Of a stretch of DNA of 10,134 nt, positions 2,099 to 10,134 are shown piece by piece. The first letter of the stretch is position 1. Every line of letters starts with the position of its first letter. A program made the translations under genes and the position numbers. The stretch is from a virus. A model generated the notes under the pieces. That model was given only the letters and a program-made list of their open reading frames with translations. It was not told where the DNA came from and searched no databases. Location: UHGV virus genome UHGV-1424210; one strand, 5' to 3'.

Positions 2099-2355
2099 AT
2101 TAACTACACCATTGACTACACCGTGCATCGTACAAGGGCAAACCGTGACGAACAAGAGCGAACAAGGAAAACAAAATTTTCCTTTATAATCATAGCGATG
2201 AATGCACACAAAACACTACCACGAACACCCGCGAACACTAGATGATAAATAACTATCATTTATATCATTTAGTTAATTAGTCTTTATTTTTCATTATGTT
2301 GCAAATAACAAGCCCGTCAAAAACAGTGATATTAACTACACCATTAACTACACCG
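2099..2355. repeat. Pair of 25-bp direct repeats, ATTAACTACACCATT(G/A)ACTACACCG, at 2099-2123 and 2331-2355
   Basis: The two copies differ at one position and are 232 bp apart. Each is itself a tandem duplication of ATT(A/G)ACTACACC. They flank the putative int promoter. Confidence 0.7.
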
Positions 2356-2386
2356 CTTCACGAACAATATCGAACAACCGCGAACA
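2149..2386. repeat. Seven CGAACA hexamers in helically phased (10-bp) groups upstream of int
   Basis: CGAACA at 2149 and 2159; at 2222 and 2232; and at 2361, 2371 and 2381, with exact 10-bp spacing within each group. Candidate integrase arm-type or AlpA/RDF binding sites. Confidence 0.6.
2293..2320 (-). promoter_or_regulatory. Candidate sigma70 promoter directed toward int
   Basis: On the minus strand: -35 TTGACG (reverse complement of 2315-2320), 16-bp spacer, -10 CATAAT (reverse complement of 2293-2298). Predicted leader of about 210 nt to the int ATG at 2075. Lies between the repeat groups. Confidence 0.35.
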
Positions 2387-2642
2387 AAGATCAACACGCT
2401 TTAATCATTATCATTTTCCGGCTATCCGTCATGAAGCTGGTGGATGATCTGCGTGGTGATTTCCACCATTCAGAGCAGGGGCGGTCATCATGACCATGCC
2501 ATAACAAAAACCCCATATTCGTGGTTTTTCTGTGTCGGGGCTATTCTGCTGTTGCCGTGCTGGTGGATATTCTCCGGTATGCGGCTCCCCATATCGGCAT
2601 CAGGCCCACCAGCGTGAAGCGTTTTTCATTTTTCGCGGGTAT

Positions 2643-2702
2643 AAAAAATCGATGGGGCGGGCAGTCCTGAAGACGTCAGGGTACAGAGATTTGACCCGCC
2701 CC
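2643..2702 (-). terminator. Intrinsic terminator (minus strand): compound GC stem followed by U6
   Basis: GGGGCGGG (2654-2661) pairs with CCCGCCCC (2695-2702), enclosing an inner hairpin CCTGA-agacg-TCAGG (2666-2680). On the minus-strand RNA this is followed by AUCGAUUUUUUAU (plus-strand A-run 2643-2648). Confidence 0.5.
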
Positions 2703-2716
2703 TCCCTGTGCATGAG

Positions 2717-2752
2717 CACAATAAGTAACCGAAGGCGGAATTCCGCCCTCGG
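2717..2752 (-). terminator. Intrinsic terminator (minus strand): 10-bp stem around GGCGGAATTCCGCC plus U-rich tail
   Basis: Minus-strand RNA CCGAGGGCGG-AAUU-CCGCCUUCGG (one G-U pair) followed by UUACUUAUUGUG. First terminator reached after the packaging operon. Confidence 0.5.
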
Positions 2753-2784
2753 TACTTACATATGAGAAACGATATTTCTTCCAC

Positions 2785-2925
2785 CGATACCCTTTATTTG
2801 GGTATCGCGAGTAAGCCCCAAAATCTGGGTGTTACTCTTACTACCCAAACTACGGGTAGTTTCCGTAGTTTCATGGTCGAGTTGCAAATCTGCAACTCAC
2901 CCACCAGCCAACGCAATTTTGCGTT
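2785..2925. other. Cluster of four hairpins / inverted repeats in the untranslated region downstream of the packaging genes
   Basis: H1 CGATACCC-tttattt-GGGTATCG (2785-2807); H2 alternative stems ACTACCC/GGGTAGT (2840-2860) or AAACTACGG/CCGTAGTTT (2847-2871); H3 GAGTTGC-aaatct-GCAACTC (2879-2898); H4 AACGCA-attt-TGCGTT (2910-2925). Confidence 0.45.
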
Positions 2926-2943
2926 ATCGGGAATATCAGCAAG

Positions 2944-3324
2944 TTACCGCCGCAGTCGTTCCGGCTTCTTCCACTGGTAAGTACTTTTCGCGCTCTCCCT
3001 CCGTTGTTGAGAACGGCGACGGTATGCCAGCAACTCAAGGACTCTGGTTCGTATGTTGCGCATATCCACGCCGTTAAGCTCAATACCATCACGGCGCATC
3101 ACCTCAGCAACAACACGCGCGTAATTTTCGGCTATCACGCTGTCCGGCTGCGTGGCCTCCTGTTCGCCAGCCTGCTGGCTGATTCCGGTAATACTGCGGA
3201 TTATCCCGAGCGCTTCGGTCTCGGTCATGGTCATGGTCATGGCCTCCATAGTGATGGCGGGTCCTCCTTGTGGGGTGCCCTGCCACGGGGCGGGAGCATC
3301 GCGGAAAAAGGCTAGTTTTTGCAT
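2944..3324 (-). CDS. Hypothetical protein downstream of terS (126 aa from ATG 3324; more likely about 101 aa from ATG 3249)
   Basis: Same strand as the operon. A strong SD, AAGGAGGA, lies 13 nt upstream of the internal ATG at 3249; the ATG at 3324 has no SD. Contains an in-frame (ATGACC)3 repeat encoding MTMTMT. No recognisable family. Confidence 0.45.
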   Translation of the reverse strand: MQKLAFFRDAPAPWQGTPQGGPAITMEAMTMTMTETEALGIIRSITGISQQAGEQEATQPDSVIAENYARVVAEVMRRDGIELNGVDMRNIRTRVLELLAYRRRSQQRRESAKSTYQWKKPERLRR

Positions 3325-3485
3325 TTTTATTCGTCATCACCACCAATGCAATATATTGATATGACTTGATGTTTTATTTTTCGGTGTCGATTTCGATTGT
3401 TTTTTGTTCATCACTGACGCATAACGCCCACCAGCGCAACGCTGAAAGCCAGTCAGTAAACTGGCTTCGGTCATTGTGCACTACG

Positions 3486-4028
3486 TTACTTGTCTTTATC
3501 CGGCTGAAACTTATCAGGCACATTTCCGGTAGTTTCCATCAGATAATCGGACAGCATTCGCGGGATGTTTTCATCAAGTTTTGTGCATGCGTTACAGGCT
3601 CTGACAACTTCTTTTTTCAGGCCATCCAGCATGACGGGGGTCATCTGTGGGAAGCTCCTTTGCATAGTAAGCGGGAGGCTGTCCATGATTGATGAAATCT
3701 GACTCGCCAGTTTTGAAAGCGCGTACATGCAAAACTCTGTATCAATCACGTCACCGCGATCGCGCTCGTTTTTAAGTTCCTGCGCCTCCGCCTGTGCTGT
3801 CAGTAATCTGATCCTGACTCGTAAGAGTTCATCATCATCAATCTCGCCTTTGTCGTTTGTAAGCTGGCTAATTGCATTGTTAACCCTATTGTCTATCACG
3901 CTGGCAACATCATAAAACGCCTCACGGCCTTTACGTTCAACGGGAGTCACTCCCCACTTGTCGAATGCTGTAGCACTTACCCGGCAGCTTTGCGCCATGG
4001 TTTTTTTGTTCATCAGGTGCGATTTCAT
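3486..4028 (-). CDS. Terminase small subunit, lambda Nu1-like
   Basis: Full-length collinear similarity to lambda Nu1 as recalled: RLLTAQAEAQELKNERDRGDVIDTEFCMYALSKLASQISSIMDSLPLTMQRSFP… versus lambda RLTRAQADAQELKNARDSAEVVETAFCTFVLSRIAGEIASILDGLPLSVQRRFP…; C-terminus ENIPRMLSDYLMETTG versus ELIPGLLSEYIEQSG. The ORF-track start at 4031 is TTG; ATG candidates are 4028 and 4013 (MNKK…, matching lambda MEVNKK…). Confidence 0.85.
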   Translation of the reverse strand: MKSHLMNKKTMAQSCRVSATAFDKWGVTPVERKGREAFYDVASVIDNRVNNAISQLTNDKGEIDDDELLRVRIRLLTAQAEAQELKNERDRGDVIDTEFCMYALSKLASQISSIMDSLPLTMQRSFPQMTPVMLDGLKKEVVRACNACTKLDENIPRMLSDYLMETTGNVPDKFQPDKDK

Positions 4029-4129
4029 CAATATCCCAACTTGGTCAAGGTTTCAGGTTGGTGTGTTGGTGTTATCTTTCCCTTTTTATTCATGGAGATA
4101 GAGCAAACAACAAAACCACCACCACCACC

Positions 4130-4215
4130 CTGAAAAAGCTCATAAATAGCGAAAAACCGCAAGGTCGCCGCCCCGTAGCCTACCGGATCGCCGGAAAGGA
4201 CCCGCCAGCCAGAAC
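4130..4215 (-). other. Lambda-type cos site (cosQ/cosN-like); cosN cohesive-end sequence at 4162-4173
   Basis: Minus strand reads GGGCGGCGACCT at 4173-4162, identical to the lambda 12-nt cohesive end as recalled. Both flanks also resemble lambda: CGGGTCCTTTCCGGCGATCCGGTAGGCTACG upstream and TGCGGTTTTTCGCTATTTATGA downstream. About 135 bp upstream of the terS start, as in lambda. Confidence 0.8.
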
Positions 4216-4229
4216 GGGACCTAATTTCA

Positions 4230-4613
4230 TCAACCAATCAACTTATAGCGACCATCCCGTGCATTGCGACGTACACGCTCAATCTTGAGGCATAGCGCCG
4301 CATCTGGCTTTTTTGGGACAGGTACGCGGCAATATTCAGAAGCTCGAGGAATATTGTTTATCCAGTCGATCACTTCACTTAAATACCAGGCCTTACGCCC
4401 TTCCGTAACCTGTACGCGCTCGGGGAACTCTCCGCGAGCCTCAAGGTTTAGCAATGTGCGACGGCTAAGGGTAGTAAGTTCCATCACCTGATTCATATCA
4501 ACAAGGCGTTCACTTAAACGCATTTTGTCAGCAATAGCCTTTAATTCCTCTACTGCTGGATCCGGATACATCATTTCGGCAATTGGCTTAAGGTCATTGT
4601 AATGATTCTGCAT
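4230..4613 (-). CDS. AlpA-family HTH protein with an approximately 45-aa N-terminal extension (127 aa)
   Basis: C-terminal part VMELTTLSRRTLLNLEARGEFPERVQVTEGRKAWYLSEVIDWI matches the AlpA/excisionase-like HTH pattern. ATG at 4613 is preceded by SD AAGGGGGA at 5-nt spacing. Sits between the D-like gene and cos. Confidence 0.75.
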   Translation of the reverse strand: MQNHYNDLKPIAEMMYPDPAVEELKAIADKMRLSERLVDMNQVMELTTLSRRTLLNLEARGEFPERVQVTEGRKAWYLSEVIDWINNIPRASEYCRVPVPKKPDAALCLKIERVRRNARDGRYKLIG

Positions 4614-4624
4614 TGTATCCCCCT

Positions 4625-4966
4625 TTACACACGAGCCAGCGGCTGAACAGAAATACCTGAGCCAACAAACGCGGCAACCTTTGCCGACAGTTCTTTTACA
4701 GACTCAGGCCAGTTCAGAGCATCAACATTTAAAACACCTGTCTTATAAACCTGTGCCTGTGTTTTTTTCGCTGTGTCGATTTGTACAGCGGAAACATAAA
4801 CCGCTTTGCCTGCGCTCGTTCCATCCCATACCACTAGCGCACCAGTTGCATCTTCCTGCATCAGTGGCGTAAACGCAGGTATTACCCCTTTATTGGCTGA
4901 AAATATCCCCAGCGTAGTAACCAGTGCTTCAGTGCCAGACATGAGTTCAGTGTAATGAGTAGCCAT
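4625..4966 (-). CDS. Head decoration protein, lambda gpD-like (113 aa)
   Basis: Similar length to lambda D (110 aa), with shared motifs THY, TPLM, WDGT, KTG, WPE and a C-terminal AF-G-x-IS. SD AAGGGGGAG upstream of the ATG at 4966. Starts 10 bp after the capsid gene stop. Confidence 0.8.
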   Translation of the reverse strand: MATHYTELMSGTEALVTTLGIFSANKGVIPAFTPLMQEDATGALVVWDGTSAGKAVYVSAVQIDTAKKTQAQVYKTGVLNVDALNWPESVKELSAKVAAFVGSGISVQPLARV

Positions 4967-4975
4967 TGCTCCCCC

Positions 4976-6022
4976 TTAGCCAATGCGAACGGTAACAAAA
5001 CGATTGATGCGGGCCGGTATTGGCTGTGGTGCTGAATGTGTCTGCACATATTCAATAGCCGGATCACCAGGCACAATATAGTTTTTCGGTGCAAGTTCGG
5101 CTTTAGTCAGCCCCATCCGGATTAGCTCCGGATCCTGAATACCGCCATAAGCGACAATCCCCTGAAGAGCCGTATTGCCAAGCACCATCAAATCAGGATC
5201 AAGGAAATATTTTTCAGTTCCGTCCTCGTCGGTATAACGCCCGCTGTAAACAACAATCGCAACATCGCCCATATACCCTTTAAAACTCACCGAATCACCA
5301 AGGTCTTTAAGGGCCGTTTCCAGTTCGGAATTAGAACCACGACGAGTATCCAGAGCCTCTTTTATCGCCCTGAATGAACGGTATTTCTTCCATACATTAC
5401 CGCCCATAATGATAATATTAGTGACGCCCTCACTAAATTCTGCGTAGCTCTCAATATCATCATTTGGATCAAAAGCTTCTTTATCCTTACCTGACCACTC
5501 AGCACCGCCAGACTGAGTGATGATATTTTGTGGTTTAATATTCCAGTCCAGCTCATAACGTTCAATACCATCGCCCTCAATGATATTTTTCCCCGTTGTG
5601 ATTGCCTGAACGGCAAGCCATTCAATACGTGCACGAATAGCTTTAGCCTGATTTACAATCGCCTGTTTAACTTTAATATTACGCGCTCCAAAAGCATTGT
5701 ATTGCTCAGGTGATACACCAGCAGGGCGCACAGCTAACTTATTTGGATCAATGCTGCTTTTCGGTTTCATATAGCCAGGGCGAATTGTTTTTGATTCGTA
5801 TCCCTCATCTCGTGAAACTTTACTGCCCACCATAGGAGAGCAAAACGCCGCGATCGGGATATTTGGATCGTCGATCGTATCAAGAATAATGTCTCTCGAT
5901 TCAAACATTACCGAGCGAGTGAAAAACAAACTGGTAAACAACGCATTTAATTTTTTTTGCACATCTTCAGCATTAGCCACCTGCACAAGCTGTGTAGGCG
6001 AATATAAGTCAACCATACTCAT
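4976..6022 (-). CDS. Major capsid protein, lambda gpE-like (about 348 aa)
   Basis: Collinear similarity to lambda gpE as recalled, e.g. NIITQSGGAEWSGKDKEAFDPNDDIESYA and ALDTRRGSNSELETALKDLGDSVSFKGYMGDVAIVVYSGRY versus lambda NITQSGGTEWSKRDKSTYDPTDDIEAYA and KLDTRRGSNSELETAVKDLGKAVSYKGMYGDVAIVVYSGQY. Start set by homology at MSMVDLY (ATG 6022); the alternative ATG at 6016 has better SD spacing. The ORF-track start at 6103 is TTG. Confidence 0.9.
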   Translation of the reverse strand: MSMVDLYSPTQLVQVANAEDVQKKLNALFTSLFFTRSVMFESRDIILDTIDDPNIPIAAFCSPMVGSKVSRDEGYESKTIRPGYMKPKSSIDPNKLAVRPAGVSPEQYNAFGARNIKVKQAIVNQAKAIRARIEWLAVQAITTGKNIIEGDGIERYELDWNIKPQNIITQSGGAEWSGKDKEAFDPNDDIESYAEFSEGVTNIIIMGGNVWKKYRSFRAIKEALDTRRGSNSELETALKDLGDSVSFKGYMGDVAIVVYSGRYTDEDGTEKYFLDPDLMVLGNTALQGIVAYGGIQDPELIRMGLTKAELAPKNYIVPGDPAIEYVQTHSAPQPIPARINRFVTVRIG

Positions 6023-6187
6023 CCTCTTTACATTCATTACAAATAATTGTGAATATATTCTATTACCGATGTCTGCTATGCGAATACATGCAACCAAGTG
6101 CAATGTTGTATAAAATATGCTGTGACAACTTCAGTGCTGATAATTCGTGTTAATGTATTTACTTCCTTTGGTCGGGATTTATGTAGC

Positions 6188-6216
6188 ATGCCGGAAAATC
6201 TATTTTTTTCCGGCAT
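6188..6216. other. 11-bp-stem hairpin between the SSB-like and capsid genes (terminator-like)
   Basis: ATGCCGGAAAA (6188-6198) / TTTTCCGGCAT (6206-6216) with a 7-nt loop. A T-rich tract follows on the plus strand only, so its role in the minus-strand operon is uncertain. Confidence 0.35.
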
Positions 6217-6233
6217 CTTTTTGTTTGCAGAAT

Positions 6234-6656
6234 TTAAAACGGTATATTATCGCCGTACGGATCATCATTCCCCGACTGTTGTTTTGCCCTGTTCAGTGCG
6301 TCAGTGGCCTGCCCCTGCTGGCCTTTTTTGCCGCCCGGTCGCGCTGTTCGCGCACTGATCACGCTGTCTGCGATAACCTGCCAGCCCTGCCGCGTTTCGC
6401 CGTTCTGGCCTGTCCACTGGCTTACCTGCATGTTACCCGCCACGCTCACCAGTTCGCCTTTGTGGTGTTTTGCCAGTGCGTCGGCCTGTCTGCCAAACGC
6501 CAGGACGGATAACCACATCATCGCCGTTCCGTCATCTGCCTGGCTGCACGGAAGGGGGACCGCCATACTAGCCATCGCCATTTGTGTACCCTTGCTGGTG
6601 GTCTTTAACTGCGGGTCAGCCACCAGCCGTCCGTAAGCCGCTATCTGTGCTGTCAT
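6234..6656 (-). CDS. Single-stranded DNA-binding protein (SSB)-like, 140 aa
   Basis: OB-fold-like core WLSVLAFGRQADALAKHHKGELVSVAGNMQVSQWTGQNGETRQGWQVIADSV resembles E. coli SSB [51 protein letters not shown]. Gly/Gln-rich linker and acidic C-terminal tip DDPYGDNIPF (compare SSB DFDDDIPF). SD GGAGAG upstream; the start ATG overlaps the upstream stop (ATGA). Confidence 0.65.
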   Translation of the reverse strand: MTAQIAAYGRLVADPQLKTTSKGTQMAMASMAVPLPCSQADDGTAMMWLSVLAFGRQADALAKHHKGELVSVAGNMQVSQWTGQNGETRQGWQVIADSVISARTARPGGKKGQQGQATDALNRAKQQSGNDDPYGDNIPF

Positions 6657-6895
6657 GCTGTCTGCTCTCCGGTTTTAACGTTGATGGTTGTCACCTGTTC
6701 CGCTTCGGCAATCTCCCGTTCTGTCAGCGTGGCAAAGTTTGCAGCTGCCGTTGTCATGAATGCGCTAATCAGTTCGGGATGTGCTTTCGCATATCCTTCC
6801 CCGGCGTTGCGGTCGATGATTTTTATCGCCACTCTCAGCCAGTGCTCTGTAAGGTCAATAGCGCGGTAGTGTGGTTGTTTGCGGTTTTCCTTCAT
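6653..6895 (-). CDS. Hypothetical protein, 80 aa, translationally coupled to the SSB-like gene
   Basis: ATG-initiated ORF whose stop overlaps the SSB-like start (ATGA). First gene after the iteron region. No recognisable motif. Confidence 0.5.
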   Translation of the reverse strand: MKENRKQPHYRAIDLTEHWLRVAIKIIDRNAGEGYAKAHPELISAFMTTAAANFATLTEREIAEAEQVTTINVKTGEQTA

Positions 6896-6935
6896 AGTTC
6901 AGATCTCAATTTTTCGTATATATATACAAAACAGT

Positions 6936-7250
6936 GCGGGTTATGCGGGTTAGCGGGTTATCTTCGCTTGCTAAGTATTTTTTATTCCTTAATATCAATA
7001 CATTACAAAATTAACTGTTTACTGTTTAGCCGTGGCGTAACCCGCAAAATGCTCAAAATAACCCGCAAACGGGGTTTTTTCTGCGGGTTACGCGTGGCTG
7101 TTTGCTGTCACTTCCTGTTATTCATCTGCGGGTTATAATCGCACTTTTGCGGGTTATAACTGCCGTTTTGCGGGTTACGTGCGGGTTATTGATTTCCTTT
7201 TTATTCATGCAGTTAATGCACTTATACACAGAGTAACCCACATAACCCGC
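6936..7250. repeat. Iteron array (9-bp GCGGGTTAY) flanking an AT-rich stretch: candidate replication origin
   Basis: Direct copies at 6936-6944, 6945-6953, 6954-6962, 7083-7091, 7128-7136, 7149-7157, 7170-7178 and 7181-7189. Inverted copies (TAACCCGC) at 7036-7044, 7058-7066 and 7242-7250, plus a degenerate one near 7233-7240. AT-rich region 6962-7030. Immediately downstream of the Rep stop at 7274. Confidence 0.7.
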
Positions 7251-7273
7251 AACTTTTCACCTCACACAGGGGG

Positions 7274-9397
7274 TTAATCTTCTGCCTCAGGCTGGAACAT
7301 CAGCACGTAAAAAACATGCTGCTTCCCCCCAATTTTGCCGAGAGCCTTTTTCTTGTAACGGCGATCGTTACCCGCTTCCAGCATTCCGGCAGCACTCAAC
7401 GCGCGGGCAAAGTGGGACGGGTTAAATCCCTGTGCGATCTCCCCCTCAAACACATGAGGAAACGTGTAAAAACGGAACTCATCATCTTCATTTCTGATAC
7501 TCCCCTTTCTGTATCCGGCAAGGTCTTTAATCGGTAAATCACGTTCATCACTGTTTGGGTAAGGAAGGTATCGACTGAACCCGAACGACGACAAAAACGC
7601 CTCAGCCTGTTCAACCATCTGTTTAAATTCCCTGTTACCCGTGCCGAACTCCTTCACCCAGGCATTAAAGTTATGCTGTATTGCGTCCCGGCATTCCTGC
7701 GCGGCCCAGCCAGTTACATGACCGGAAAGCACAAGCGCGGCCTCCAGTATGGCGAAACGCTCACCCACGCGGTGGACTTGCTCGCCGTAGCTCTCCGGTA
7801 TCAGGTTGCGCCACCGTTCGCGGCATTCCCTTACCGTATCCTTTGCCTCCTGCTGGTGGCCTGCCAGCCATTTAACCCACTCACGACCCGCTGCCCCGTG
7901 ATTTTCTGTCCAGGCATCCTTTAACGCGTCTGCGTGCGCCTTTCCGGTGCTGTATTCGTGAAAGTGCGTGGCTTTTTCCATCGGAACGTTAAGCAGGCGG
8001 ACAAGCTGCCCCGCTTTGACTTTTATCCCCTCCGTTTTGAGGAATGTCTCAACGTCCATTTCTCCGGTGCTGATTGCCACCGTGCGCCAGTGTTTTATCT
8101 CCCGGTTGCCGCCGTCCTTCGCCCCCTGTAATTTCCCGGAACCGTTAAACAACGTATAGGCTGACGTGGACACCTCCCGCGCGTTTCCGGCCTGGCCTAT
8201 TTCATCCAGGGGTAACAGCCCGTCGTTGTGCGCCTCTGCCTCGTTAGCGATACCTAACGCTGTGCCGTACCAGGTCAGCCGTTGTGCGTCCGGCTCTCCC
8301 CATAAACTTGATGCGATGTTCTGCGTGGTGGTTTTCCCTGCCGATGACTGTTCGAAAAGATGTACCCCGAAGCCGTCAGCACCAACAAGGCCAATCAAAG
8401 GTGCTGCCAGTGACGTGGCAACACCCAGCATCATGGACGGATTGCCACCAGCCAGCCGCGCCACGCAGTCGCGCCAGCCCTCCGACGTACCCGCAACCGA
8501 ATAGCCATTAACAGTGGCACTTTTTCCGGTAAACAGGATCGGTTTTTCAGAATCACCAATGATTGAGCCGTCCGGCATGATATACGCGCCAAAATGCCAG
8601 CCCGTTGTTGTGCTTAGCTGCCATTCCTCATGGCTTCCGCTTAACTGCATCCAGTCAGCCAGGATAGCCCTGTATTTGCCGTTTGTTGTCACGTTCAGCC
8701 CGTGATCTTTAAGCAACCGCCAGCCGTCACGGTCGCCAATGCCACCACACGGGATCGCCATTGTGATGACTTCATGGTTTGCTAATTTTTTCCAGCGCAT
8801 CACGCGGTAATGCTCTTTACCGATCGTCCCCGTTCCCAGTAGTTCAAGCGGAGAACATAACCACGTCTCAGGCCGGATAATTTCGCCTGACTGCTTATCC
8901 ACTTTGGGCGTTACCCAGAAAACACCATCGACGCGACTTTCAACGCGGGGCTTTAATTCATCATCCTGATAGCATGGCTCTTTTTTCTTTACAGGCAGTT
9001 CAACTACCTTTTTCTTTTCCGCCTGCTCTGCCCGTTCACGTTCCAGATATTCGCGCCAGTTCTCCCGTTTCTGGCTGTGCATTCCTTCAGGGTAATAATC
9101 AGCATCCCTGACACCTGCCGCTGCCAGTTTCTGCCCGATGGTATTAACAAGCCCCGGACGCAATAACCCCGCCTGGTAGAGACGCACGCGATAGCGTCCG
9201 TCCGGTACGATTTGCAGGTTGTCCAGTTCGGCAAGTTGTTGCTCTCCAAGCCAGACAGGTGGCACGTTATCGCCAGCCAGTCGCCCGTCCTGTTCCTGCC
9301 ACTGCTTCGCATGTGCCCACGCATCACTACCCGCAAAAATGATGACTTCCGTCATTTTGTCACGCGGCTGGTGTTTTAAATTTGGCGCTTTTTTCAT
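7274..9397 (-). CDS. Replication initiator (primase/helicase-like ATPase; resembles DUF927-type proteins of CP4-57/PICI-like islands), about 707 aa
   Basis: Long ORF with P-loop-like motif FEQSSAGKTT and Walker-B-like LLPLDEIG. Adjacent iteron origin. Start set at ATG 9397 (SD GGAGAGAG, ATGA overlap with the upstream ORF stop); the ORF-track start at 9412 is GTG. Family assignment is from memory, not from a search. Confidence 0.8.
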   Translation of the reverse strand: MKKAPNLKHQPRDKMTEVIIFAGSDAWAHAKQWQEQDGRLAGDNVPPVWLGEQQLAELDNLQIVPDGRYRVRLYQAGLLRPGLVNTIGQKLAAAGVRDADYYPEGMHSQKRENWREYLERERAEQAEKKKVVELPVKKKEPCYQDDELKPRVESRVDGVFWVTPKVDKQSGEIIRPETWLCSPLELLGTGTIGKEHYRVMRWKKLANHEVITMAIPCGGIGDRDGWRLLKDHGLNVTTNGKYRAILADWMQLSGSHEEWQLSTTTGWHFGAYIMPDGSIIGDSEKPILFTGKSATVNGYSVAGTSEGWRDCVARLAGGNPSMMLGVATSLAAPLIGLVGADGFGVHLFEQSSAGKTTTQNIASSLWGEPDAQRLTWYGTALGIANEAEAHNDGLLPLDEIGQAGNAREVSTSAYTLFNGSGKLQGAKDGGNREIKHWRTVAISTGEMDVETFLKTEGIKVKAGQLVRLLNVPMEKATHFHEYSTGKAHADALKDAWTENHGAAGREWVKWLAGHQQEAKDTVRECRERWRNLIPESYGEQVHRVGERFAILEAALVLSGHVTGWAAQECRDAIQHNFNAWVKEFGTGNREFKQMVEQAEAFLSSFGFSRYLPYPNSDERDLPIKDLAGYRKGSIRNEDDEFRFYTFPHVFEGEIAQGFNPSHFARALSAAGMLEAGNDRRYKKKALGKIGGKQHVFYVLMFQPEAED

Positions 9398-9693
9398 TTC
9401 TGCTCTCTCCACGCGGCAATCATGTTTTTCAGTTCCTGTAGTTTTTTATCCACATCCACACGTGACACATGGTTATTTCTGGAAGTCGGGATTTCCCGCC
9501 GGAATCTGCAAATAAAGATCTCCACGTTCAGCGAACTAAGAAATGAATAGCCATCACGGATAAAATACACACGGTCAAACATCAGTTCTTTTACCGTTAC
9601 TCTGTTACCGTTCTTATCCAGATAAATAGCGCCGGGGATAATTTGGGGGTGTGCATAACCGCTGGCAGTCAAGCCAGATAAATACGTTCTCAT
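9394..9693 (-). CDS. Hypothetical protein, 99 aa, translationally coupled to rep
   Basis: ATG at 9693 with an upstream GGGGAT; stop overlaps the rep ATG. No recognisable motif. Confidence 0.55.
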   Translation of the reverse strand: MRTYLSGLTASGYAHPQIIPGAIYLDKNGNRVTVKELMFDRVYFIRDGYSFLSSLNVEIFICRFRREIPTSRNNHVSRVDVDKKLQELKNMIAAWREQK

Positions 9694-9699
9694 GATTAT

Positions 9700-10020
9700 T
9701 TATCCCCGATTTGAATCAGTATTCGCTTTCTTTATAGCATTTAATGCATCTGTGGCATTTTCAATGGTGCACCGTAACGAAATATCAAAATGTCCAAGCA
9801 TTGCCAGTAACAAACCGATATTACCCATATCAATGCGCATGGCCTTTTCGTCATAGTCCTCATTTTCTGACGCATGCCACATCAGGCTACCAATTGACGC
9901 AACAGCCATTGATATATTGTCAGTAGCCCCATCCGCAGCGGAATAAACCTTTTTAGCAATATCATGCTCACAGTTAAAATGCGGATTAATCAGGTACTGG
10001 TAATTTGACATATCAGGCAT
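9700..10020 (-). CDS. Hypothetical protein, 106 aa
   Basis: ATG-initiated ORF. Its start overlaps the stop of the upstream partial ORF by 8 nt. Six bp separate its stop from the next start. Confidence 0.55.
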   Translation of the reverse strand: MPDMSNYQYLINPHFNCEHDIAKKVYSAADGATDNISMAVASIGSLMWHASENEDYDEKAMRIDMGNIGLLLAMLGHFDISLRCTIENATDALNAIKKANTDSNRG

Positions 10021-10134
10021 GGCACACCCCCTGACGAATACGGGCAGCGAATACCATCACGCAGCCAGCCGGGGATTGCAGGCGTGCTTCCTGTTCGCTG
10101 GTGGCCTCAATGGTAATCACGCGCGGTTGTGCCG
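10013..10134 (-). CDS. Partial CDS (C-terminal 39 codons) entering from the right edge
   Basis: Open minus-strand frame from the window edge to TGA at 10015-10013 (…VITIEATSEQEARLQSPAGCVMVFAARIRQGVCHA), overlapping the next gene start; indicates an operon of at least four genes. Confidence 0.4.
   Translation of the reverse strand, partial: AQPRVITIEATSEQEARLQSPAGCVMVFAARIRQGVCHA

Follow-up and report, generated by a model that had tools for sequence, protein, structure and literature searches.

What is the hairpin-rich stretch of about 300 nt that follows the packaging operon in this viral DNA? The first-pass annotation, made from the letters alone, had seen there four hairpins followed by two consecutive intrinsic terminators and had proposed a structured regulatory RNA or a set of protein-binding palindromes at an element junction. 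Analysis of the whole stretch of 10,134 nt (here called the window) points to another answer, to which we assign a probability of roughly 0.6: the region would be the non-coding cis-element end of a phage satellite, lying between the packaging operon and attP and assembled as a patchwork of exchangeable cassettes, and the distal hairpin with its T-run would be a copy of an SfV/SfI/SfII/ST64B/phiP27-type cos site, by which the satellite would pirate the cos of a helper phage.

The 701 bases around the region are 100% identical to sequences in many E. coli chromosomes. In strain 2015C-3163, the matching integrated element sits between clpS and yljB/cspD and has the gene order 94-aa hypothetical protein, small terminase, HTH regulator, head decoration protein, major capsid protein, SSB, DUF927 primase, Icd-like protein, AlpA-like regulator, and tyrosine integrase. 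Positions 1 to 2263 of the window align to the right (int) end of the integrated satellite in other genomes, and positions 2242 to 10134 align to its left end, between clpS and yljB/cspD; as read from its sequence, the window represents a PICI-like E. coli satellite of ~10.5 kb in circular or tandem (attP) form. Both forms were found in public assemblies. The complete E. coli genome CREC-629 (locus L003, NZ_CP024815.1) contains the satellite in three or more tandem copies with a period of 10,487 bp, one of them with frameshifts, and a 10,790-bp record deposited as a plasmid (L182, NZ_CP148328.1) is a circular satellite of the same family.

Pfam and PHROGs searches of the window identified a lambda-E-like capsid protein, a lambda-D-like decoration protein, a Nu1-like TerS, and two AlpA-like proteins, and the integrase (int, 837 to 2075) has an arm-DNA-binding domain (Arm-DNA-bind_3). 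The capsid, decoration, and TerS proteins are encoded on the minus strand at 3486 to 6103, without portal, protease, or large terminase, and this gene set is intermediate between those of the classical PICIs and the capsid-forming PICIs (cf-PICIs). Just 3' of the DUF927 primase gene, positions 6930 to 7260 contain a probable replication origin, in which an AT-rich core is surrounded by many GCGGGTTA(T/C) iterons of either orientation. A search of the window for tRNA and tmRNA genes gave none, and a contig set with one genome per species, apparently one without these satellites, yielded no match when searched with the 94-aa protein and with the pattern of hairpin D. The features of the region and its surroundings are collected in Table 1.

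Table 1. Features of the satellite end, the attP region, and the two cos sites (positions are those of the window)
Feature	Position	Strand	Basis
P-arm repeat block (ATTAACTACACC ATTGACTACACC, then CGAACAA repeats); probable integrase arm-type sites	2099..2155	+	repeat D2 and Int domain
att core (attP in the circular or tandem form), the element junction	2242..2263		22-bp overlap of two end alignments
Best sigma-70-like promoter in the window (TTGACG-16-CATAAT), candidate int promoter	2293..2320	-	promoter scan, 10/12 matches
P'-arm repeat block (ATTAACTACACC twice, then CGAACAA repeats)	2331..2387	+	repeat D2
Chi (GCTGGTGG)	2436..2443	+	octamer scan
Chi (GCTGGTGG)	2559..2566	+	octamer scan
Chi, ~50 bp beyond the cos motif	2606..2613	-	octamer scan
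Putative SfV/SfI/phiP27-type cos cassette (the supposed second terminator)	2624..2706	-	phage homology
TGCCCGCCCC, exact match to the SfI 10-nt cohesive end	2654..2663	-	sequence; PMC3636060
Distal stem, GGGGCGGG/CCCGCCCC, then ATCGATTTTTTAT on the minus strand	2654-2661 with 2695-2702	-	
Hairpin B, intrinsic-terminator-like (11 pairs, 8 GC, loop 4, tail UACUUAUUGU)	2728..2753	-	terminator scan
Module 3 (hairpins C, 2785-2807; G, 2809-2837; D, 2840-2871; E, 2879-2898)	2781..2900		conservation
Hairpin C, CGATACCC/GGGTATCG	2785-2792 with 2800-2807		sequence
Hairpin G	2809-2837		sequence
Hairpin D, alternative stems ACTACCC/GGGTAGT, AAACTACGG/CCGTAGTTT, and AAACTAC-GG-GTAGTTT	2840-2871		repeat search (inverted-repeat pairs I6 and I12)
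Hairpin E, GAGTTGCA/TGCAACTC	2879-2886 with 2891-2898		sequence
Chi between hairpins E and F (-241 position)	2901..2908	-	octamer scan
Hairpin F, AACGCAA/TTGCGTT	2910-2916 with 2919-2925		18 nt beyond the last gene's stop codon
Last gene of the packaging operon, 94 aa, phrog_1561	2944..3228	-	gene call and PHROGs
Lambda-type cosN (GGGCGGCGACCT) upstream of the Nu1-like TerS gene	4162..4173	-	sequence

The hairpin region does adjoin an element junction, as had been suspected, but the actual junction, the att core, is located ~400 bp farther left. On either side of the core lies one copy of a 57-nt direct repeat (D2), each consisting of two ATT(A/G)ACTACACC units followed by CGAACAA repeats. This layout is the classical attP arm architecture and fits arm-type sites for an integrase with an Arm-DNA-binding domain; the ACTACACC repeats are read as such sites because they flank the core on both sides and the integrase has that domain. 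They had been described as repeats at the int promoter, which, given their occurrence on both sides of the core, they are not simply. A twofold GACTACACC motif also adjoins att in L005, an unrelated cf-PICI-like element integrated at tqsA. The candidate int promoter faces int from across the att core, so the two would become separated on integration. The small host gene yljB overlaps the core with its 3' end, and a host transcript could therefore read into int when the element is integrated. The ACTAC motif of hairpin D had been thought to echo the arm repeats. It is indeed common to both, but the likeness extends to the pentamer only and was over-read: the arm-type consensus TDACTACACC is present at 2099 to 2122 and 2331 to 2354 with a period of 12 nt, whereas hairpin D has a period of 9 nt and is not at a fixed distance from the core (580 to 610 bp in the window and ~350 bp in L005).

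The stretch 3' of the packaging operon is, as first noted, on the minus strand and unusually structured. For positions 2630 to 2943 (314 nt), the minimum free energy of the minus strand was -137.3 kcal/mol versus -90.4 ± 5.7 kcal/mol in shuffles (z = -8.25), and the z value of the plus strand was -7.97. All of the hairpins described at first are present in the sequence, including the mutually exclusive ACTAC stems of hairpin D, which are overlapping inverted repeats; however, five hairpins, not four, stand ahead of the two terminator-like stems. The one nearest to the last gene, hairpin F, is conserved in structure but not in stem sequence (AACGCA/TGCGTT, ACCCA/TGGGC, AGTGCA/TGCACT, and GGCG/CGCC), and three pairs of this helix (helix 5 of the alignment) are changed on both sides. 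In some related satellites (L165, 1798 to 2192; L109, 1782 to 2287; and L124, 1779 to 1965), tandem units of ~54 nt come after the last gene, each with the elements TAAC..TTGAT..TTCC and a short hairpin whose stem sequence differs between units; the window has one such unit, that of hairpin F.

Hairpin B is a plausible intrinsic terminator and a good candidate on the coding strand. It has the features of the class, with at least five T residues in the 8-nt tail window, and contains a G-U pair on the minus strand that would be an A-C mismatch on the plus strand. Within the region, the terminator scan flagged hairpin B alone (2753 to 2728, minus strand). The distal stem (2702 to 2654) combines an 8-bp GC stem with a T6 run, its loop is 33 nt long, the T-run begins 4 nt past the stem, and the scan made no call. 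Of the two consecutive intrinsic terminators of the first-pass annotation, hairpin B fits the class, and the distal structure is the homologue of a mapped phage cos site. Packaging-operon transcripts would be stopped ahead of attP and int by hairpin B and probably also by the cos hairpin and the T-run that follows it.

The identity of the distal structure was indicated by comparison with 50,697 phage records, 26 of which matched positions 2624 to 2706. These 83 nt are 92% to 95% identical to the HNH-TerS intergenic (cos) region of SfII, SfV, SfI, and ST64B, with SfIV and others among the matches at this level, and 83% identical to phiP27, whose annotated cos-site lies inside the match; the phiP27 record gives CGCCCGCCCC as the cos-site, at the place equivalent to TGCCCGCCCC. 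The SfV and SfIV records start, and the SfI record ends, inside the match, the last letters of SfI being ...TGCCCGCCCC and the first of SfV being TCCGGACTGCCCGCCCC. Sequencing of the ends of SfI virion DNA revealed a 10-nt TGCCCGCCCC gap (PMC3636060). This module occurs alone in many E. coli prophages, and in the NU14 prophage the sequence is found between the genes for an HNH endonuclease and a P27-family TerS. The homology spans the phage HNH-TerS intergenic region and ends short of the TerS ribosome-binding site. In the window, the cassette lies between hairpin B and the attP P' arm, and no HNH or P27-family TerS gene was present anywhere in the window.

Most satellite copies (e.g., those of L003, L023, L043, and L084) have TGCCAGCCCC in place of the phage TGCCCGCCCC, a one-base C-to-A substitution that lies within the cohesive end and disrupts the inverted repeat, and the site may consequently be drifting or be recognized differently. 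An exact-match scan of IMG/VR for the satellite variant GACTGCCAGCCCCATCG returned the known satellite loci and eight chance matches and no phage. In other satellites that share the last gene, the equivalent position is taken by different HNH-phage cos variants (L116, L130, L136, and L137): L116 has a phiP27-like GGGACTGCCCGCCCCGTCAAATTTTTACACCCGCG, and L130 and L137 have GGGACCGCCCGCCTACCC, which matches phages such as phi467 and, near the record ends, mEp235 and Fraca. At loci with two copies of module 3, a further cos variant is located between the copies together with origin-like iterons. Counted across the satellites, the different HNH-phage cos variants at the equivalent position number at least four, and such repeated gain of different helper-type cos sequences at one place argues for function rather than accident. 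Several records deposited as Escherichia phages, among them ON470600.1 (11.1 kb), ON470621.1 (17.9 kb), ON470607.1 (18.2 kb), and ON470586.1 (21.5 kb), also contain an HNH-type cos variant; at a length of only 11 to 21 kb, they may be satellites sequenced from virions.

The cassette might instead be a nonfunctional relic of recombination with an SfV-like prophage or have been kept merely as a good terminator, and its terminator-like anatomy (an 8-bp GC stem and then ATCGATTTTTTAT), its position in tandem with terminator B upstream of int, the substituted cohesive end of most satellite copies, and the presence of a separate lambda-type cos and TerS in the satellite would all agree with that. 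We consider this unlikely, since at least four cos variants at the equivalent position are hard to see as repeated accidents, the homology covers the HNH-TerS intergenic region and stops before the TerS ribosome-binding site, Chi sites have been added around the satellite cos while none was seen near the three phage cos regions examined, and a 33-nt loop is atypical of an intrinsic terminator.

The satellite also has the lambda-type cosN at 4162 to 4173, the flanks of which resemble lambdoid cos regions and which lies just upstream of the Nu1-like TerS gene. A cos of lambda type within the hairpin region was ruled out, the lambda-type site being this one. Both cos sites of the satellite have the same orientation; it carries, as far as the sequences tell, two unrelated cos types and could exploit two unrelated helper families, the second of which is probably that of the SfV-like phages. 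Phages of the SfV/SfI/SfII/ST64B/phiP27 type are HK97-like, with packaging by TerS, TerL, and an HNH protein. During replication of such a phage in the cell, the phage terminase would recognize and nick the satellite at TGCCCGCCCC and would then package satellite concatemers toward attP and int, in the same direction as from the lambda-type cos. The sequences show the homology, the exact cohesive end, the orientation, the mosaic distribution, and the Chi enrichment; we infer cleavage at 2654 to 2663, the use of this helper, transcription termination, and the role of module 3. The satellite cos comes without the HNH and TerS coding sequences that flank it in the phages, and these might hold terminase-binding determinants.

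The surroundings of the cos cassette are rich in Chi. The octamer 5'-GCTGGTGG-3' occurs 12 times in the window (between 106 and 10104; six sites on each strand in 10.1 kb), versus 0.33 expected, and none of 200 shuffles reached 12. This density is ~5 times that of the E. coli chromosome. Four of the sites, 2436 (+), 2559 (+), 2606 (-), and 2901 (-), surround the putative pirated cos. Among 32 distinct contexts, a Chi was found at +47 or +54 past the cos motif in nearly all satellites with a cos of this kind, and most also had one at -241 or -522 relative to cos. No Chi was found within ~280 bp of the cos in the NU14 prophage, phiP27, or SfV, the SfV stretch covering the downstream side of the motif only. 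RecBCD recognizes Chi when it arrives from the 3' side of the octamer. By this rule, the site at 2901 (-) would face the free end left by cleavage at 2654 to 2663, and those at 2559 (+) and 2436 (+) would face the other end of the linear molecule; the near-universal Chi at +54 does not fit, as its orientation is wrong for a RecBCD that enters from the cos end closest to it. No recognizable RecBCD inhibitor was identified in the satellite, and Chi around the cos would thus blunt RecBCD attack on the cut ends.

Module 3 was found in 704 of 5,426 complete E. coli genomes, nearly always at full length and almost never annotated, and had no match in the 50,697 phage records. It is present both in lambda-type satellites and in cf-PICI-like elements and is near-identical across satellites with unrelated flanks, and about half of the satellites that share the adjacent last gene are without it. 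The first-pass annotation had suggested checking whether related genomes break synteny here; they do, and at the related loci the region is modular, with a mosaic distribution of its cassettes. A scan of IMG/VR with AGCCCCAAAATCNNNGTGTT added only two new variants of module 3 and four chance hits. Obligate pairing of module 3 with a P27-type cos was ruled out, as L005-type cf-PICI-like elements have module 3 and no adjacent cos. In L006, an abortive-infection gene is located just beyond module 3, on the side away from the last gene. An iteron block homologous to 6930 to 7260 lies between two module-3 copies in L017, L029, L046, and L067 and beside the cos in L116. In L116, L130, and L136, which have no module 3, the first 60 nt past the last gene contain five GTGACA repeats with a spacing of ~10 to 11 bp and, after them, a strong terminator-like hairpin; the arrangement resembles an array of protein-binding sites at the position of module 3. 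We conclude that module 3 is a real, recently spreading, satellite-specific cassette.

The covariance analysis that had been proposed for the stems gave a divided result. In an alignment of 36 sequences, 93% of the cells pair, and 8 of 39 pairs are changed on both sides; all of these are in hairpins C and F, and some of the changes in C come from one non-homologous row (L046a). The compensatory changes in hairpin C are C-G to U-A and A-U to C-G. Hairpins G, D, and E, in contrast, are essentially invariant, loops included, and show no compensatory change. The most diverged homologue of module 3 (79% identity) keeps hairpin C, a shortened D, and E, and RNAalifold returned weak, uninformative consensus structures for both strands of alignment A1.

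These data also bear on the idea of a regulatory RNA. A discrete structured sRNA, made from ~2650 to 2940 and acting in trans, for example, on helper or host mRNAs, would explain the very stable fold of both strands, the near identity of module 3 next to unrelated flanks, the compensatory changes in hairpins C and F, and the absence of coding periodicity. However, the wobble substitutions (G-U versus A-C) are divided, two pairs pointing to the minus strand and two to the plus strand; covariation is absent from hairpins G, D, and E; and the 79%-identical homologue folds with a z value of just -2.5. Rfam 15 gave nothing in the region when the whole window was searched at E ≤ 1 and only noise for 2580 to 2960 at E ≤ 10 (E values of 2 to 8, far below the gathering scores). 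Our scans detected no promoter-like site in or beside module 3 on either strand and no terminator specific to it, about half of the related satellites are without the cassette, and the proposed RNA would include a phage cos site. A discrete RNA species is accordingly not supported, and we regard it as decidedly unlikely.

The palindromes could also act as DNA, as binding sites for proteins; in particular, the ACTAC elements of hairpin D would be extra integrase arm sites, and the region would belong to the attP intasome or to an operator array. AACTAC is enriched in the window (10 copies versus 3.5 expected; 0 of 200 shuffles reached 10), and 6 of the 10 copies are in the att arms or hairpin D. 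In the deletion variants of module 3, what is left of hairpin D is a 7-bp inverted repeat, AAACTAC-NN-GTAGTTT, whose 2-nt spacer varies and which resembles a dimer-binding site more than an RNA hairpin, and the conservation of G, D, and E down to their loops points the same way. We nevertheless find protein binding highly improbable as the explanation of the region. Hairpin D has nothing but ACTAC in common with the 12-nt-period arm repeats, its distance from the core varies, and satellites with the same arm repeats are often without module 3; in L006, a whole abortive-infection gene stands on the module-3 side away from the last gene; five different palindromes would require five different proteins; and the stems of C and F vary with compensation, which points to structure and not to the recognition of a sequence.

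Scarcely credible, finally, is a small protein encoded by module 3 in the plus-strand frame from the ATG at 2762. That frame is open in the window, in L006, and, from a different ATG, in L005, and all of the indels seen, a 9-nt deletion and a 3-nt insertion, are in-frame multiples of three. However, the 9-nt indel corresponds to precisely one unit of a 9-nt direct repeat, conservation does not extend to the start codon, a convincing ribosome-binding site is absent, and RefSeq has no annotation here in most genomes. The variable columns number 21, 19, and 14 by position modulo 3 (6, 6, and 3 in the best-conserved core), and on this lack of 3-nt periodicity a coding role of module 3 was rejected as unlikely.

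Within the reading of the region as a cis-element end, the simplest view of module 3 is that of a 3'-untranslated-region (3'-UTR) structure or of an insulator bordering the variable cargo end. The most likely role of hairpins F, E, D, G, and C would then be that of 3'-UTR structures acting at the RNA level, which would protect the mRNA 3' end or insulate the operon from the cargo end; this is the weakest part of the proposal. A still more inclusive picture, in which the satellite uses two helper families (one through the lambda-type cos and its own Nu1-like TerS and the other, independently, through the pirated SfV/P27-type cos and HNH-dependent terminases), has its cut ends protected by Chi sites placed for that purpose, and carries in module 3 a new structured RNA or cis element of ~13% of E. 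coli genomes, is put forward tentatively, and as a whole we hold it to be rather doubtful. The literature on the cos sites of PICIs and cf-PICIs, as far as it could be searched, contains no description of a lambda-type and an HNH-type cos together or of module 3. Two unrelated cos types in one element thus appear to be undescribed, although they would be a variation on known cos piracy. Piracy of this kind decides which phages mobilize a satellite together with its virulence or defense cargo. If two unrelated cos types are indeed in use, the helper range would be wider than current PICI models assume, and such a satellite would bear on the open question of why some E. coli PICIs carry two cos sites. 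The dense, satellite-specific placement of Chi suggests a simple route by which satellites without Gam-like inhibitors could survive RecBCD. Module 3 marks this class of satellites in hundreds of genomes and could serve as a marker for their detection.

Some of the individual elements have close counterparts in known systems. Hairpin B resembles the Rho-independent terminators at the ends of operons in its GC-rich 11-bp stem, its 4-nt loop, and its U-rich tail on the coding strand, but its U-tract is interrupted (UACUUAUUGU), and the supposed distal terminator differs in its 33-nt loop and is a cos homologue. The exact Chi octamer is strongly overrepresented on both strands, as in the Chi-rich genomes of phages without RecBCD inhibitors; here, however, Chi is clustered tightly around a putative pirated cos and belongs to a satellite rather than a phage.

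The putative pirated site shares with the cos of SfV, SfI, SfII, SfIV, ST64B, and phiP27 (i) an identical TGCCCGCCCC, (ii) the GGGGCGGG...CCCGCCCC inverted repeat, (iii) the T-run, (iv) the ACCCGCGAAA box, and (v) the orientation relative to the direction of packaging. It differs from these phage sites in its location at the end of an element adjoining attP and not between the genes for HNH and a P27-family TerS, in its flanking Chi sites, none of which were seen near the phage copies examined, and in the C-to-A change in the cohesive end of most satellite copies.

Piracy of a helper cos is known from P4, which uses the P2 cos; from SaPIbov5, which uses the phi12/phiSLT cos and the phage HNH; and from EcCICFT073, with two lambda-like cos sites and Rpp. 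Two cos sites are also found in SaPIbov4 (PMC6092414, PMC6739421). Like P4, SaPIbov5, and EcCICFT073, the satellite described here appears to bear a copy of a helper cos, so that the helper terminase would package the satellite. Unlike the known cos-pirating satellites, it would combine a lambda/Nu1-type cos with a 12-nt end and an HNH-dependent SfV/P27-type cos with a 10-nt end, and it encodes a lambda-E-like capsid protein, a D-like decoration protein, and a Nu1-like TerS of its own.
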